DNA of 64,000 nt from Eledone cirrhosa. Taxonomy: Eukaryota. The translations under genes and the position numbers were made by a program. This document shows positions 8,290-64,000 of this stretch, in pieces. Within the stretch, counting starts at the first letter, position 1, and every line of letters starts with the position of its first letter. The stretch covers positions 271,746,001 through 271,810,000 of the forward strand of contig OZ024741.1 in assembly GCA_964016885.1 (NCBI GenBank). The letters run 5' to 3'. The notes under the pieces are model-generated. The model did not search any database. It was not told where the DNA came from and worked only from the letters and a program-made list of their open reading frames with translations.

Positions 8290-8590
8290 GAGCTGAGGGA
8301 GAAGCTGGTTTAAGAGGAATCCGAGGAGGTGTTCAGGAGAGAAGATTGCATTAGTATGAACATGTGATGCACATGGACAATGACCAATGGGCGAAAAATT
8401 GCCAGGAAATCCCAGTGGAAGGAAGCCACAATAGAGGACGACCAAGAAAGACCTGGGCAGAGGTTGTGAGAGCTGACCTCAAATCACTAAAACCGGCAGA
8501 GGAGATGACGAAGGAACGTGACAGGTGTAGAGATGCCATACTGAGGACACGTCCAAACCATGCAAGCATGGAAAAGCGGACGTAAAAACG
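8290..8590 (+). mobile_element. RTE LINE 3' end fragment
   Basis: [25 protein letters not shown] followed by the family 3' end CATGCAAGCATGGAAAAGCGGACGTAAAA. Confidence 0.8.
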
Positions 8591-32255: not shown

Positions 32256-34292
32256 TAATAATAATAATAATAATAATGAAATTATTGTGTACAGTGCTCA
32301 GGTGCACTACAACTCATCAAAGGTGCATGTATAGTACATAGAATAATGTACAAATGTCAGGAAAATAAACAGTGTATGAGTCATGATATAATAACAATAA
32401 CGAAATATTGTGCACAGTGCCCAGGTGCACCACAACTCATCAAAAAAGTGCATGTACAGTACATAGGGCAATGCACAAACATCAGTAAAATGAACAGTGC
32501 ACGAGTCATGATACACACATGTGTGCATGTGTATGGAAGGGGTACATCAGGTGTACTTTTGGCGTATTTTGGGAAGCATGAGTGTCTTAAAGGATGCAGT
32601 GTCTCGGCAGCTAACAATTGACGCAGGCAGTTTGTTCCATGCTTCAGTAACTCTGAGCGTGAAAAAATGTCTGCGAAAGTCATGGGAGCTGTGCTGTTTT
32701 CTTATCTTGTAGGCATGTCCACGTGTGTTAGACACATGGAGATCAAAGAGGCGCTCAGGGTTGCAGTTGGCGAGATGGTTAAAAACTTTGTGGGTATTCA
32801 CCAAGTCCATTGCCAGACGTCGGAGCTTCAATGAATCCATGCCCAGGGAAGCAAGGCGTTCAGAGTATGGTAGGTGTCTGATGGAGGGTATGCGCTTGGT
32901 TGCACGTTTCTGAACAGTTTCCAGGAGGTCAATGTTCCGAGCAAGATAGGGGTTCCAGACTGATGATGCGAATTCCAAGTGTGGTCGCACCATAGCTGTA
33001 TACAGTTTTAAATAGATGGCTGGAGAGCGGCTAACAAAGGTCTTGCTGAGTGATGCCAAGACACCCTCGGCCTTCTTGACAATCTTAGAGACATGCTTTG
33101 TCCAACGCAAATCGTTGCTGACAGTAATGCCCAGGTCATGTTCACAAGAGGACTTTTGATGTCAGTGTTGTGGAGGGAGTATGTGGACGCTGGATTTTTC
33201 CTTCCAAAATGCATGGTGGTACACTTGTCCACAGCCAGCTTCAGTTGCCAGTCTGTGATCCATTGCTGCATTGTGTCCAGGTCTGATTGTAGGAAAGAGT
33301 TGTAAATTTCAGGATCAGTCCTTTTGATTTCAAGGTACAGCTTGATGTCATCTGCATATTTTAGTACCGTGGCATTCTGTAAGTTGGCATCTATGTCATT
33401 AATATATGCCACAAACAAAAGAGGACCAAGAACAGATCCCTGTGGTACACCAGATGACATCTCATATGGTGAAGAATGCTGTCCTAGAACCGTGACTACT
33501 TCCTTTCGGCTGAGAATGAAGGATTTCAGCCAGTCGAAAAGATCATCCCTCACACCCATTGCAGAGAGTTTTGCCATAAGTCTTTTGTGTGGCACAGAAT
33601 TAAAAGCCTTAGCAAAGTCAAGGTAAACAACATCCACCCATGAGCCGCTGTCAGTGATCCGGGTGATGTCCTCAAGAAACTCGATAAGCTGATCACAGCA
33701 GCTGGAGTTAGGGATAAATCCAAACTGTGAGGGCCGGATGAGGCTGTGAGAGCTCCAGAAGTTCCAAAGTGTTTCTCTGACACAGGATTCCATCAGTTTG
33801 GCCATACAGCTAGTAAGACTGACTGGACGATAGTTGACAGGTGACATGCGGTTGCCCTTTTTGAACAGGGGAATGACACTGGCAGTTTTCCACTGCTCCG
33901 GAGTAGCACCATTGCTGAGACAGTATTGAAAGAAAAAAGAAAGCTGGCACAAAAGGAAATCCCCGCCACGTTTGAGAAGCAGGTATGTCACACCATCAAG
34001 ACCAGGGGAGGCATAGTTGCGCTTATTCTTAAGGTGACGTCGCAACATTGCAGGTGTAAATTCCATAGTTGTTATGGAATTTGATGTTAGAGATGGTGGA
34101 GATGGTACATTCTGGTCCTCAACAGTAAAAATACTTGCATAGCACTCAGCAATGAGTTCTGCGCATTCCTTGGGATCGTCAGTGATCTGGCTTGTGTGGG
34201 GATTGCGAAGAGGACCAACTGGAGAGTGAGGTCTCTGCTTTGAATGAACATATTTCCAGAACACCTTACTGTCAAGATTGGTTGCGATGCAC
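32256..34292 (-). mobile_element. 5'-truncated CR1-clade LINE (RT + C-terminus, one frameshift, (ATT)n tail) in LAPTM4 intron 1
   Basis: NYRPVSLTS, YLDFAKAFNSVPH, SGVPQGSVLGPLLF, YADDIKL, RPHLEFASSVWNPY, TRGH...RHFFTLRVTEAWNKLP. Two ORFs are joined by a 1-nt frameshift near 33155. Confidence 0.95.
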
Positions 34293-34649
34293 TGTTATAT
34301 ATACATATATATGCGTATATTCATATATATAAACAAGGTTTAGTAAATAATGAAAAAGTTTCAAAATAATATGTATATATATATATGCATTACGTATATT
34401 CACATCTACATATTCACATATGTAAATTAAAATATATTTTATTTACTTAAGAGGTGTATAAATAACATTGCAAATAATTTTAAAAAGAGAAAGAAAAAGG
34501 AAAGAAAAAAAGAAAGAGAAAAAGAAGAAAAAAAACAAGCAGATAGTACACACATCTAGGACCACATATAACAAAGGGCAGGCGAAAGAGGTGGACAAAC
34601 GAGCAGCTACCGGAGCAAAAGATAATATAGCAAGGGGCATTGGGAAATC

Positions 34650-38575: not shown

Positions 38576-39146
38576 TTGGCAGTGTGCATAGCTCTGAGGT
38601 CTTTTTGTAAACTGTTTGTGGTCAATAAAGAAAATATTATTATTATTATTATTATTGGCATCAGTCGGTCTTGAAAACACCATGAATCTGCTGCTGAAGA
38701 ATTTTGTTTTAGTTGCCGGTGGCTGTGCAGTGTCTGCTGTGGCTGTACAGGCACACACAGGAGTGGCAGTCCTGTATACAGCAACTGCATTTGAAGATGT
38801 TCTCCTCCAGTGCTACTGTATTGTTCTATTTTTGAACACGCTTTTAATAATAATAATATATATATATATATAATATATATATATAGATAAGTATGCACAC
38901 GTACACACATATATATATATATACACACATATACTGTATATATATATACACACATATATATATATATACACATATATATATACATACACATATATATATA
39001 TACATACACACATATATACATATATAGGTATGGGTTATACCGAACAATAATAATGTTCGATTCATTTATAAACAAACGACCCAATTTGAAGCTGTGCCGT
39101 GCTGGTGACTGATCGTCACCTGTTTATTCAACACTGACTTTGAGGA

Positions 39147-39189
39147 ACAATCAACATGTTTCTGGGTCATTACCCTTCATCAGGACTGT
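39147..39189 (-). ncRNA. Minimal type I hammerhead ribozyme motif within an about 250-bp non-coding element (39030-39270)
   Basis: ACAGUC-CUGAUGA-A-GGGU-AAUG-ACCC-A-GAAA-CAUG-UU-GAUUGU: 6-bp stem I, 4-bp stem II, palindromic stem III, GUU triplet. Confidence 0.75.
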
Positions 39190-40074
39190 ATACCTCTGCC
39201 AATCTGTTGAAAATATATAGTAGCTGAGTAGCTTCATTTGCATACCAAGCGAGTTACGGCTGGCCTTGCCAAATCGGCTGAGTAGCTTCATTTGCATACC
39301 AAGCGAGTTACGGCTGGCCTTGCCAAATACTAAAAATAAAATAAGAATTTTATTTCTCGCTCTAGTACAGCTGATACATCATCATCATCATCATCATCAT
39401 CAACGTTTAACGTCTATCTTCCACGCTAGCATGGGTTTAAATGGGAATTGTCCTACTTGAGGCAAGATTGGTCAGGTGACCATGTCTCGCTCATATAGGG
39501 CTGTCTGTAAGTATGCACACGTACACGTATATATATATACATATATATATACATACACACACACATATGTACGTATGGGTTATATCGAACATTAATAATA
39601 ATGTTCGATTCGTTTGTAAACAAACGGCCCAATTTGAAGCTGTGCCAGTGACTGATCGTCACCTCTAGCTGTGCTAGAGCAAGAAATAAAATTCATGGAG
39701 GCACATGGCTTAGAGCATTGGGCTTGCAATCGAAAGGTTGTGAGTTCAATTCTCAGACCGGGTGATGTGTTGTTTCCTTGAGCAAGACACTTTATTTCAC
39801 ATTGCTCCAGTTTACTGAGAGATAGAAATGAGATGATAGAACTGGGGTCCATACCATTCCACTGTAAAGTGGACGTGTAGGCACCACGGCAAAAAAGCAC
39901 CCAGCACTCACTGTAAATGAGGTTGGTGTTAGGAAGGGCATCCAGCTGTAGAAATCAAGCCAGAATCAGTTCCCATCCCACCCTTGAAAGCAGGGAAAAG
40001 CAGACGTAAAATGATGATGATGATGATGATGATATGTGTGTGTGTGTGTATGTGTGAAGACCTGCCTTCACATG

Positions 40075-50014: not shown

Positions 50015-50201
50015 TTTACTGAAATCCAACATATATATATATATATAAGTCAAAATCTGAACATATAAGAACAGACACAACAAAATAGACAAACTTTTAT
50101 TTTGTTAGCAATCTACTGCATTATATATGTACACATTATGCATGTGTGTGGGTGAAAGTATATGTATATATATATTCATTTATTAAAGCTAAATAATGAG
50201 A

Positions 50202-50248
50202 CTTGTTACTCTGGAGTTTCACCTGTTATCACAGGGTCATCAGACAAG
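50202..50248 (-). ncRNA. Minimal type I hammerhead ribozyme motif (left arm of inverted repeat 50172-50344)
   Basis: CUUGU-CUGAUGA-C-CCUGU-GAUA-ACAGG-U-GAAA-CUC-CA-GAG-UA-ACAAG: 5-bp stem I, 5-bp stem II, stem III, GUA triplet. A mutated mirror copy lies at 50266-50313(+). Confidence 0.78.
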
Positions 50249-50518
50249 AACATTGAATTTTTGTCTTTGTCTGATGACCATGTGATAAACAGGTGAAACT
50301 CCAGAGCAACCAGACTCACTTTTTTAGCCTTAATAAATGAATATTTAAACACTATTTCAGTATTGCCACATACATATATCCTATAGGAGCCGTTTCTATA
50401 TTAAACTTGATGTTTACACACACTACTAATATAATATATTGAGTACCTTACTAACTTTGGTTTCATTTTCAAATTCTAATTGACATCTTCTAAACCACAT
50501 GTGATCTGTTTACACACA

Positions 50519-56079: not shown

Positions 56080-59000
56080 ATCATCATCATCACCGTTTTA
56101 CGTCCGTTCTTCCACGCTAGCATGGGTTAGACAGGTTGTCCTGTTGTGGGCAGTGTCTGGTCGGCTGACCATGCCTTGCTCATACAGGAACTGATTTGGC
56201 TTGATTTCTACAGCTGGATGCCCTTCCTAACACCAACCTCATTTACAGTGAGTGCTGGGTGCTTTTTCGTGGCACCTACACGTCCACTTTACAGTGTGGG
56301 CTGGGTGCTTTTTTGCCGTGGCACCTCCACGACCACCTTGCGGTGGGGGGTGTGGGGGCATATTGTCTATATGCTTCAGCTTGTACCCATGGGAGGTCGG
56401 GTACTCTGTATTACTGCGGGACGCCAGAAGTCACGGTCGTGTGTCATTGTCTTTGAAAGGTGTAATTGGGTAAGGTCGGCTTTTATCACCTCATCCCAGG
56501 TCTTCTTGGGTCTCCCCACTCTGCGGTTTCCATCAACTTCTAGTGCTCTGCACCTTTTTATGCAGCTGTCCTCCTTCATACGCATCACATGTCCATACCA
56601 GCGCAATCGCCTCTCCTGCACACAGCATTTGATTCCTCTTATGCTCAGTCTCTCTCTCAATTCATTTATGCTTTGTCGTTCACGTATATTACTATTACAC
56701 ATCCATCAGAGCATGCAGGCTTCGTTTCTCTCTAATCTCCGTAAGTCTTCCACCTTCAGCGCCTAGGTCTCACTACCATGCAACATCGCTGTTCAGATAC
56801 ACGCATCATACAGTCTGCCTTTCATTCTGAGGGAGAAGCCTTTTGCAGCTAGCAGTGGTAGTAGTTCCCTAAACTTCTTCCATCCCGTTCTTACCCTAGT
56901 TATTGTACTTTCTGAACACCCACCTCCACTGCTAATTCGGTCACCTAGGTAGCAGAAGCTGTCTACTGTTTCTACAGGGCCCTCCCAGAGATTGGTGGTA
57001 CTTGTTTCCTGTGGCTGTTTGCTGCTTGCTGTCGCAGCACAGCTGCTGCATGTGAATCCTACATTCTTAATTAAGCTTCCTGAGATCCCGCTACATCTCT
57101 TGTGTACCCATTGTTTGCATTTGGGGCAGAGAATGGAGTTCCTACCTACACCTTTCCTACATACTGAGCAAGGCCATTTCCCTGAGGGGATCTGGGTTCT
57201 GTTTTCTCGTCTACTTACAAGGACCTTAGTCTTTGTCATGTTGACTTTGAGACCCTTTCTTTCTAGTCCCTGCTTCCAAGTTTGGAATTTATTCTCTAGT
57301 TCTACCATAGATTCAGTAGAGTGGCTTACTTTTAGCTAGGTACTTTTCCTGTAATTGCCTCACAAGGAAGAGGGCATCAGTGGTGCCTCTTCCTGGTACA
57401 AACCCAAATTGCATCTCGTCTATTTTCACCCGGTCCCTAATCAGCTGTGCTATAACTCTTTCTGTTACTTTCATGACCTGGTCCATCAACTTTATACCTC
57501 TATAGTTTCCTCTATCTAGTGCATCGCCTTTACTTTTGTAGCAGTTGACAATGATGCTACTGCACCAATCTTTTGGTATGGCACCTTCTAGTATTACCTG
57601 GTTAACGATACGTGTGGTTATAGTGTGACCTACAGACCCAGATGCCTTCAGCATCTCGGCAGCTATACCCGATGGACCGGTTGCCTTCCCCATCTTCATA
57701 TCTTTGATTGCGTACTTACTACGCTGCTGCTGACTTGTACTGCTGGTCCCTCTATAGGGTCTACTTGGGGTAGGGTCTCTTCTTCCCATGCATTCTCCCC
57801 ATTTAGTAATCTATCATAATGACTCTTCCATGCATCTTTCTTCTCAGCACTTGTGAGGGCAAGCTCACCTTTATCATTCCGGATACACTTCTCTCCAATG
57901 ACATCACAACTATCTCTGACACACTGCCTCGCAATCTTGAATACCTCCTGTTTCTGGTCCTCACGTTGCAAAACATGCTTGAATTTTCTATCCTCTGCTT
58001 CCCTCCTAGCTAAGTATACTTGTCGCCTAGCTTCCCTCTTGGTCTCTATGTAATGTACCCTGCTCCCCCCGTTCTTCCATTCTTTCCATGCCTGTCTCTT
58101 GGCCTTAACTGCTTCATCTACCTTATTGTTCCACCACCAAGTCACTCTCCTCCTGCTTGAGGTCTTACTCCAGCCACAGACCTCATCCATCGTCTCTAGT
58201 AAATTATTTTTTAGGAATTCCCAGTTCTCTTCTACATTAAATGTCTCTATCTGTTCTTCTTTACTGTCGTAGGCTTTGAGTAAAATATCTTTAAATCTGT
58301 TACTGGTTGAGGGGACTTTCAGCTTCCAGATCTTTCTTCTCCAGGTTGGCCTCTGTTTCCAGGTTCGTCTAGTTCTGACTGTGAGGTCGCTGACAACTAA
58401 GCTATGTTGGGATGTACATTCCTCACTAGGGAAGGCTTTTGTGTTTACGACCGTCCATCTGTCACGTCCTCTGGTGAGGATAAAATCTAACTGACTAGAG
58501 TGCTCCCCTGATCTATAGGTGATCAGGTGGTTGTCGGGTTTTTTAAAGTTTGTGTTACATATCGACATGTCATTGGCGTCGCAGAATTCTAGAAGTCTGA
58601 ATCCTTCCTCATTCCTTGTGCCAACCCCATGGCCTCCATGTACTCTATTGAAGCCGTCGCAGTGTTTACCTACGTGTCCGTTAAAATCTCCTGCGATGAT
58701 TAGGAAGTCATTGTCGTCTGTTAGAGCAGTAGTGTGCATTAGGGATTCGTAAAACCTATCCTTAAGTTCGTCTGACAGCCCCGATTGGGGTGCGTAAGCT
58801 GATATTATTGTGGTAATTGTTTTATTCAGGACTAGTCTGAGTTTAATGATTCTTGCATTTACCCTGTACACTGAGATCACTTTATCTACCCACTTGTCAG
58901 CTAGTAGTATACCTACACCACCCATCCCATCGTCATTTCCCACCCACAGAAAAATTTGTAGCACCGACTTTTTCCTACGAGGACTCTGGCAGACTCTCCT

Positions 59001-59170
59001 CTCCATCTAGTCTCTTGCACACAGCATACATCAATTTCCTTTCGCTCTAGCATTTCTACGATTTCTCCTGCTCTTCCTTTCATTGAGCCTACATTGATGG
59101 TACCAACTCGGAGTTTTAGGCATTTGTCGACACTCGTAGGGAAGGGTCTCTGGGTTGGCGCTTCACGTGG
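56080..59170 (-). mobile_element. Near-full-length RTE LINE (APE + RT + PHD-type finger), inactivated by frameshifts, stops and an internal RT deletion
   Basis: GTINVGSM, CCVQETRWRG, SAYAPQ, GDFNGH, SQLDFIL, SQHSLV, MQFGFVPGRGTTDA. Jumps from KPLY to ESMVEL at about 57315. WPCSVC..CPKC..WVHKRC..CSSC finger and (ATG)n tail. Confidence 0.95.
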
Positions 59171-63288: not shown

Positions 63289-63735
63289 CTGAAAATTTCA
63301 AATTGGATACTTTGGTTATAATTTTTTTAAATTTAGATTTGAAATGTGTCCATCCCAACGCAAATGACCATAATAATAGTTGATCATACACACACACATA
63401 TATATATATAAATAAACGTAAGTATGTATGTATACGTACATACATATATGTATACAGACGTACAGTAGCATGTATATATATATATATATATATATACATA
63501 CATCTGTATACATATATGTATGTACGTATACATACATACTTACATTTAAGTAAGTGCCATACTAAGAGTGAGAAATTAAATTAAATTTCATTTCATTCTA
63601 TTCCATTCCATTTTATCGTTTTCGGTGTGCCTGGCCGACTGAACTCACTCGATATGCAAATTAGGCTGCTCAGCCGTTAATTTTCATAAGGAAAGTATAT
63701 ACTTTCGAACGTTCAACCATCTGGCAGAAGGGTAT

Positions 63736-63778
63736 ACGGTGCTGACGATAGCTAACAAGCTTGAAACTAGTACATCGT
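63736..63778 (+). ncRNA. Minimal type I hammerhead ribozyme motif within an about 270-bp non-coding element (63630-63895)
   Basis: ACGGUG-CUGACGA-U-AGCU-AACA-AGCU-U-GAAA-CUAG-UA-CAUCGU: 6-bp stem I, 4-bp stem II, palindromic stem III, GUA triplet (cut after 63772). Confidence 0.82.
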
Positions 63779-64000
63779 TCCTGTGTCAGTGTTGAACAAA
63801 AAGGTCACGTGGTTGCCTTAACACCGTACGGCATAAATCAGGCTGTCCGTTTGTTTACAAACGAACAAAGCGAACATTATAATAAATGTTCACTAAACTG
63901 ATACGTACATATATATACGTGTGCCTGTATGTATATATATATATATATATATACATGCTACTGTACGTCTGTATACATATATGTATGTACGTATACATAC

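Follow-up and report, generated by a model that had tools for sequence, protein, structure and literature searches.

Putative non-LTR retrozymes of Eledone cirrhosa carry an snRNA-promoter-like block and share the insertion layout of Penelope-like elements

Background

Two short elements, A and B, in a 64,000-nucleotide stretch of the Eledone cirrhosa genome (assembly GCA_964016885.1, contig OZ024741.1, forward-strand positions 271,746,001 to 271,810,000; hereafter the window) resemble hammerhead ribozymes, and they raise the question what kind of repeat they belong to, from where it could be transcribed and by which enzyme it could be mobilised. The mode of transcription and the mobilising enzyme are also the two open questions on animal retrozymes at large. 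Coral, mussel and axolotl have been reported to express non-LTR retrozymes as circular RNA (PMC7229834), and a 2020 review describes retrozymes as seemingly devoid of promoters and of a conserved motif that would indicate their partner (PMC7761336). An origin from Penelope-like elements (PLEs) has been argued for those of vertebrates, and in a Xenopus test one of nine retrozyme dimers was cleaved (bioRxiv 2026.07.22.740005). A first-pass annotation of the window, made from its letters alone, had read A and B as copies of a non-coding, hammerhead-bearing mobile repeat that is selected for structure and possibly uncatalogued.

Results

The ribozymes of A and B

The two elements, A on the minus and B on the plus strand, do align along their length as initially claimed, with a local alignment score of 189.5 against 57 ± 8 (maximum 84) in 300 shuffles. 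In A the hammerhead spans 39143-39195, with the core starting at 39183 and a predicted cleavage between 39153 and 39152 (U17); in B it spans 63730-63782, with the core starting at 63742 and a predicted cleavage between 63772 and 63773 (A17). Both are type I hammerheads with the CUGANGA / GAAA / UH core, three helices and an open helix I, and all helices quoted in the first-pass annotation were found (a stem I of 6 bp, a stem II of 4 bp and a palindromic stem III), as were the UAU internal loop and the extended stem. The extension of stem I had been given as GAGG/CCUC; it is present in both copies, and for B the pairing is AGG/CCU or GGG/CCU instead. Absent from that account is the base of stem II (10.1/11.1), where each copy has a mismatch (A.A for A, U.U for B); the related family B' has U.U as well, and a G10.1-C11.1 pair is found in family C only. 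Cleavage may be slowed by these mismatches and, for A, by U17. Helix III measures 2 bp and carries a palindromic loop, and the duplex by which two such palindromes could pair in a dimer is predicted at about -4.6 to -4.8 kcal/mol. The hammerheads had also been called minimal; PLE minimal hammerheads are defined by a helix II of 7-8 bp and a helix I of 4-5 bp (PMC4209133), whereas A and B have the canonical size of metazoan type I ribozymes.

Folds of the ribozyme strands gave z scores of -2.9 (A) and -3.4 (B), those of the opposite strands -1.1 and -0.8. A strict motif scan found no hammerhead in 20 shuffled windows, yet it missed A and B too, because it required pairing at 10.1/11.1; a relaxed scan recovers both. 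Rfam gave no hammerhead at E<=10 in the regions of A and B, no hammerhead model among the best 150 of the 167 matches listed for the window, and none in the stretches of A, B, C and D; its miRNA matches were rejected as microsatellite artefacts.

Across five natural copies, 8 of the 16 hammerhead pairs change on both sides and 79 of the 80 pair-by-copy cells remain paired, so that compensatory changes preserve the pairing of the ribozyme, as had been proposed from A and B. None of 500 shuffles reaches this covariation and slid structures give at most one two-sided pair, figures that are not probabilities, since the copies are relatives of one another and also served to derive the structure. 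In 25 copies of family A, chosen by an exact 20-mer, the changes outside that 20-mer are scattered and break pairs. The compensatory changes reflect selection on the master copies of the families, not on the loci A and B of the window. A stepwise compensatory path in stem I, from G.U through U.U to U.G, can be followed across subfamilies (L120, L121 and L117 versus B of the window).

The window holds a third, unrelated type I hammerhead at 50200-50330 on the minus strand (core at 50243), in which helix II is longer and helix III measures 4 bp; it is preceded by part of its own sequence in inverted orientation, and the promoter block described below is absent. A further, abundant hammerhead-like family recurs in unrelated flanks (L005, L028, L033, L035, L044, L052, L123, L124, L137, L245 and L251); its helix II is long and its helix I AT-rich. 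Positions 1-1800 of the window are an array of a 36-bp unit in about 42 or more copies of 96-98% identity.

Families and their units

The genome, 3.0 Gb in size and rich in microsatellites, contains many relatives of these elements. A and B turn out to be different families of one non-coding repeat of 424-465 nt, with 67-69% identity between A and B, 83% between B and B' and 53-59% between C and the others (all over the first 305 alignment columns). An 18-nt pattern spanning A, B and B' occurs at 8,437 + 7,982 = 16,419 places in the genome versus a single control match; a 20-mer specific for A has 231 matches and a 22-mer specific for a further family, D, has 1,647. Among the best 40 scored relatives the copies of A are 80-92% and those of B 98-99% identical. 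Family C, found by chance in a flank, has copies that are 96-100% identical.

Natural monomers measure 455 nt in B, 424 nt in B' and 465 nt in C, with a GC content of 36-38%, and, as expected of retrozymes, they are without a protein-coding region and below 50% GC. By eye, no LTR, PBS or PPT is apparent in the unit sequences. Tandem copies, which the first-pass annotation had proposed looking for, occur as arrays of up to 7 or more units: every unit of the short tandem repeats in B, B' and C bears a hammerhead, D hammerheads are spaced by about 440 nt, and the copies of A are mostly single or partial instead of arrayed.

A consensus fold computed independently for whole units again contains stems I and II, and 35 of its 131 predicted pairs show two-sided changes; these include a long-range stem, and some of the other predicted helices are poorly supported. 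Folded as circles, three monomers gave z scores of -7.1, -10.0 and -9.5 versus -4.0, -4.8 and -6.5 for the antisense (40 shuffles each), and they are highly self-paired (67-71% of the bases), another trait of retrozymes. The reading of A and B as a non-coding mobile repeat selected for structure thus gains support from the genome copies, the covariation and the folds, with self-cleavage putative. The repeats are likely non-LTR retrozymes, a kind of element already described, with putative cleavage and putative circles.

The two insertions in the window

Element A was at first given an extent of 240 nt, which is too short for a unit of 424-465 nt; the insertion covers about 38886-39694. Its main arm (38886-39379, minus strand) consists of one unit plus terminal redundancy, with 79-86% identity to the natural copy L012 by BLAST, and it stops at the "short" 3' end (see below) against a TA run. 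Within this arm lie an alternating purine-pyrimidine (TA/CA) part at 38890-39030 (minus strand), which forms a long hairpin in the family fold, the hammerhead, and a block that resembles the promoters of host U6 and RNase MRP genes at 39231-39244 (minus strand, 14.9 bits in the profile described below). Between block and ribozyme 27 nt have been deleted, which leaves 61 nt from block to core instead of 88, and a local 54-nt tandem duplication (39223-39330, minus strand) includes a second such block at 39285-39298. An unrelated later insertion with a (CAT)n run (39380-39505), seen as a gap in the map to L012, splits the element from a partial upstream tandem unit (39506-39664, minus strand, 86% to L012), and a short inverted arm containing the tail region follows head to head at 39667-39694 (plus strand, 93% over 28 nt). 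Copy A is an old, rearranged and decayed copy, and its ribozyme itself is intact.

The main arm of insertion B (63440-64000, plus strand, mapped with L031) runs about 75 nt beyond the end of the window to the "long" 3' end, and a short inverted arm, with limits read approximately from the sequence, lies at 63400-63490 on the minus strand (palindrome 63418-63543). Upstream of the ribozyme lie the U6/MRP-type block (63653-63666, plus strand, 18.6 bits) and, at 63670-63701 on the same strand, a U1/U2-like TCAG box (63670) together with a TATA-like hexamer (63696); transcription of B is predicted to start near 63727-63731. Contigs from four of six sequencing runs were compared with B, with the low-depth matches in X5 and X6 set aside; they show the presence of variants only and are silent on expression. 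The same SINE-like repeat follows both insertions (39696-39900 in the window, and downstream of B in L031), probably via a shared TA target.

A block shared with host snRNA promoters

Families A, B and C share a conserved block that contains an octamer, and in all five families (A, B, B', C and D) the block lies 81-101 nt upstream of the hammerhead core. The same block is located at -77 to -79 in all five host type-3 promoters used: three of U6 (two single loci and an array), that of the best U6atac gene and that of the only RNase MRP gene. Two types of U6 upstream region, of which one has an insertion, and 9 of the 10 U6atac loci were left out of the profile, the block-less U6 and U6atac matches because they look like retrocopies. 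These host genes have the block near -78 and a TATA element at exactly -30, and the first 14 letters of the MRP block are those of family A. A profile of the five host sites gives 18.8 bits for A, 18.6 for B, 15.3 for C and 12.3 for B', as compared to 12.8-17.9 for the host sites when each is left out in turn and at most 9.1 for 19 distinct U1/U2 upstream regions. In the background only 2 of 592,124 positions reach 15 bits, and the top match proved to be the further hammerhead family D, where the block precedes the core by 93-94 nt; among 15 D loci a block-like match is found at 94 nt in six, at 84-87 nt in three and not in the other six. The other hammerhead families in the flanks are without the block (best score under 6 bits).

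Host U1 and U2 genes have a different set of elements, with TCAGT at -56 to -58 in 8 of 9 types (TCAAT in one), AATTA near -90 and a TATA-like tract near -31. Among the retrozymes, all families but C have TCAG 17 nt after the start of the block, and a TATA-like tract is found at 43-46. Scored with the U1/U2 profile, this position is the best of 188 offsets in A, B' and D, the second best in B and number twelve in C, although the TCAG anchor was chosen post hoc and the retrozyme families are related and therefore not independent evidence. With 16.1 bits only D reaches host-like scores (12-25 when each host site is left out in turn); A has 6.6-8.5 bits, B and B' have -0.4 to 2.5, the box is absent from C, and the retrozymes have no AATTA at the position corresponding to -90. 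The combination of block and TCAG was seen in no host gene examined. The spacings of both promoter types place the predicted start of transcription at block +74 to +78, where the extended ribozyme stem has its 5' edge; this would be 42-54 nt upstream of the cleavage site, and about 42-46 nt in B. A depletion of T runs downstream of this start, considered as a sign of Pol III, was not significant (P 0.21-0.32).

Alternatively, these repeats could be the same retrozymes without a working promoter, the block being kept for RNA structure or protein binding, or being a relic of its capture from an snRNA gene, with the RNA made by read-through, as the 2020 review proposes for metazoan retrozymes (PMC7761336). 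The block is indeed paired within a hairpin of the RNA fold, and one B' subfamily changed a base of the block together with its pairing partner; that subfamily has also lost 8 nt before the ribozyme, so that its start would fall inside stem I. Moreover, the distance from block to TATA is 43-46 nt, as compared to 47-49 nt in host type-3 genes, and this spacing, 3-5 nt off, is not that of a type-3 promoter. However, families A, B, C and D agree in 12 of the 14 letters of the block, whereas two-sided changes are found in 7 of the 10 pairs that make up hammerhead stems I and II; the block also holds its position before the ribozyme, and it is triplicated in family D. I consider a block without promoter function rather unlikely, and the sequence evidence leans towards a functional promoter of the retrozymes' own.

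Insertion layout and Penelope-like elements

Insertions of the retrozymes consist of one unit plus redundancy, or of tandem arrays, and often they are built of two arms in head-to-head arrangement. The 5' ends are variable, and the 3' ends of each family are fixed at two positions 55-75 nt apart: measured from the cleavage site, 226-233 and 296-301 nt in C, about 227-238 and 286-302 in B, and 218-221 and 274-277 in B'; in C both adjoin TA runs. Among 20 distinct C insertions (25 loci; the query favoured the short end), all 13 two-armed insertions with both ends visible pair one short with one long end, and the same holds for 11 of 12 two-armed insertions among 28 distinct B insertions (30 loci), the exception being L039 with two long ends. 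Two resident PLE families, with reading frames that match RVT_1 and/or GIY-YIG, show the same two-end pattern, with ends 65 and 40 nt apart. An inverted 5' copy, a one-sided tail and a bias towards (TA)n are known traits of PLEs (PMC8557442), and the retrozyme insertions have this layout, being tandem or inverted, with a one-sided tail and in microsatellite targets. The inserts exceed one unit, and their ends do not coincide with the cleavage site; a circular or multimeric template would fit both features.

Mobilisation by the enzymes of PLEs is a highly probable reading of this layout. A different connection would be that the units are solo pseudo-LTRs, that is, 3' fragments of an unsampled autonomous PLE. 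In favour of this, the layout is that of PLEs, and Xenopus retrozymes are said to resemble such pseudo-LTRs (bioRxiv 2026.07.22.740005). The first-pass annotation had held that the novelty would fall if all copies were termini of a known Penelope family. I found no shared coding flank within 1.5 kb beyond the unit in 60 A and B loci and no common upstream sequence, and the units occur only as separate nested inserts, never as terminal repeats, in the 30 loci with GIY-YIG and the 18 stretches of 6-9.5 kb inspected; in this search, which scored 150 of 10,596 GIY candidates, the copies did not prove to be Penelope termini. An element with an RT and GIY-YIG frame between pseudo-LTRs made of these units was not seen in this partial sample of GIY loci. 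Against the pseudo-LTR reading stand also the perfect arrays, of up to 7 or more units, which join end to start with no remnant of a reading frame, and the 3' regions of the sampled PLEs, which are unrelated and in which any hammerhead is a different one without the block. Units that are mere ends of an autonomous element are quite improbable, and the rolling-circle alternative of a Helitron- or HINE-like DNA repeat or a satellite merely bearing a hammerhead is hardly credible. The tandem arrays, the internal microsatellite and the terminal hairpins speak for it, being Helitron-derivative traits; against it, the fixed 3' and variable 5' ends, the head-to-head inversion and the tail match resident PLEs, and the fold is strand-biased and covarying over the whole unit.

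A linked RT frame, another proposed check, is not found at either insertion: in a scan of 11 of 25 frames, the closest fragments of an RT or endonuclease were over 4 kb away from A and B. These were rejected as partners, as they look like LINE pieces, one with an exo/endo/phosphatase-type endonuclease. On its minus strand, at 32547-34294 and 56793-59006, the window contains disrupted LINE-like pieces that match RT, endonuclease and PHD-finger domains. BLAST of A, B and D versus PLE loci, in search of a PLE partner, returned only nested retrozyme copies and a U-rich end. A 938-codon RT and GIY-YIG frame exists in the same genome. Long open frames with both domains were seen in L091 (3809-6622, minus strand), in a family with 65-nt tails, near the end spacing of the retrozymes, and without a hammerhead by motif scan, and in L094 (3722-5629, minus strand), in a family with its own small hammerhead. 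A U6 copy lies between the two ends, short and long, of one of the resident PLE families (L177), and a U6atac copy directly adjoins an inverted piece of family D (L248); both could result from template switches of a PLE enzyme.

Discussion

Taken together, the observations are probably best explained by a non-LTR retrozyme that is likely copied from circular RNA by PLE enzymes and that is predicted to be transcribed from an snRNA-type promoter of its own. Transcription would start at about block +74 to +78, where the ribozyme stem has its 5' edge, with Pol II transcription of the snRNA type slightly favoured, because the RNA must pass runs of T4-T6 to include the next promoter. The hammerheads of successive units would then cleave, likely as dimers via the palindromic stem III, and the monomer would be ligated into a circle containing the promoter. 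A Penelope-type endonuclease could cut (TA)n, where both strands would prime reverse transcription at two internal sites of the RNA, and such priming would result in head-to-head inserts of more than one unit, with the promoter restored upstream. A bolder proposal, which I regard as tentative and a little short of an even call, is that these are self-contained RNA parasites, with a composite promoter of U6-type and U1/U2-type elements on the circle, a transcription unit rebuilt by each more-than-unit insert, and PLE two-site priming from both strands of (TA)n.

If this holds, it would provide an invertebrate retrozyme with its own host-matched promoter, and it would reveal the two-ended priming mechanism of PLEs on a substrate of 450 nt. 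The near-identical young families (B with 98-99% and C with 96-100% identity) and the 938-codon frame make both the mode of transcription and the mobilising enzyme directly testable, and the host promoter motifs could be useful for small-RNA expression in this lineage. New here are, on the level of sequence, the promoter-like module in five related families and the PLE-type two-ended layout. The suspicion that the repeats are uncatalogued may hold for the families and does not hold for the kind: non-LTR retrozymes were known, and I found no literature description of these families or of the block, nor of host snRNA promoter anatomy in the context of mollusc U6, while Repbase, Dfam and supplements may list the repeats under other names. 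The main text of a 2026 repeat annotation of Octopus vulgaris mentions hammerhead, ribozyme and retrozyme zero times (PMC13282606).

Like the metazoan non-LTR retrozymes described in PMC7229834, the present repeats combine a canonical type I hammerhead, short tandem repeats and a GC content below 50% with a strongly self-paired monomer, no reading frame and co-occurring PLEs. Axolotl HHR_Amex2 even has the U.U mismatch at the base of helix II seen in B, and such a U.U variant cleaves, whereas the reported size of metazoan retrozymes, 150-450 bp, is reached or exceeded by the units of 424-465 nt (PMC7229834). The alternating purine-pyrimidine hairpin, the head-to-head, two-ended inserts in (TA)n and the promoter-like block set the present repeats apart from metazoan retrozymes, and circles are only predicted here.

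A hammerhead-bearing tandem repeat with an snRNA-type promoter has been described in satellite 2 of newts, which is transcribed by Pol II (as cited in PMC2220036 and PMC6765202); the likeness is one by description, and the promoter is only putative here. Unlike in the newt, the block of the present families matches host U6, U6atac and MRP promoters and appears to be followed by a U1/U2-like box. The Sm-alpha repeats of Schistosoma have internal tRNA-like boxes; in the window no tRNA gene was called. Sm-alpha is a SINE-like hammerhead repeat described as transcribed by Pol III (as cited in PMC2220036 and PMC6765202), and it shares with the present repeats the order of promoter, then hammerhead; its promoter lands in the 3' part of cleaved transcripts, so that tandem copies are needed (PMC6765202).

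From PLEs and their pseudo-LTR hammerheads the units differ by having neither RT nor endonuclease and by a hammerhead that is canonical, not minimal, and they have no sequence homology to the resident pseudo-LTRs sampled. With PLEs that have a C-terminal GIY-YIG they share the partial tandems, the inverted 5' copy, the tail at one end and the (TA)n targets.
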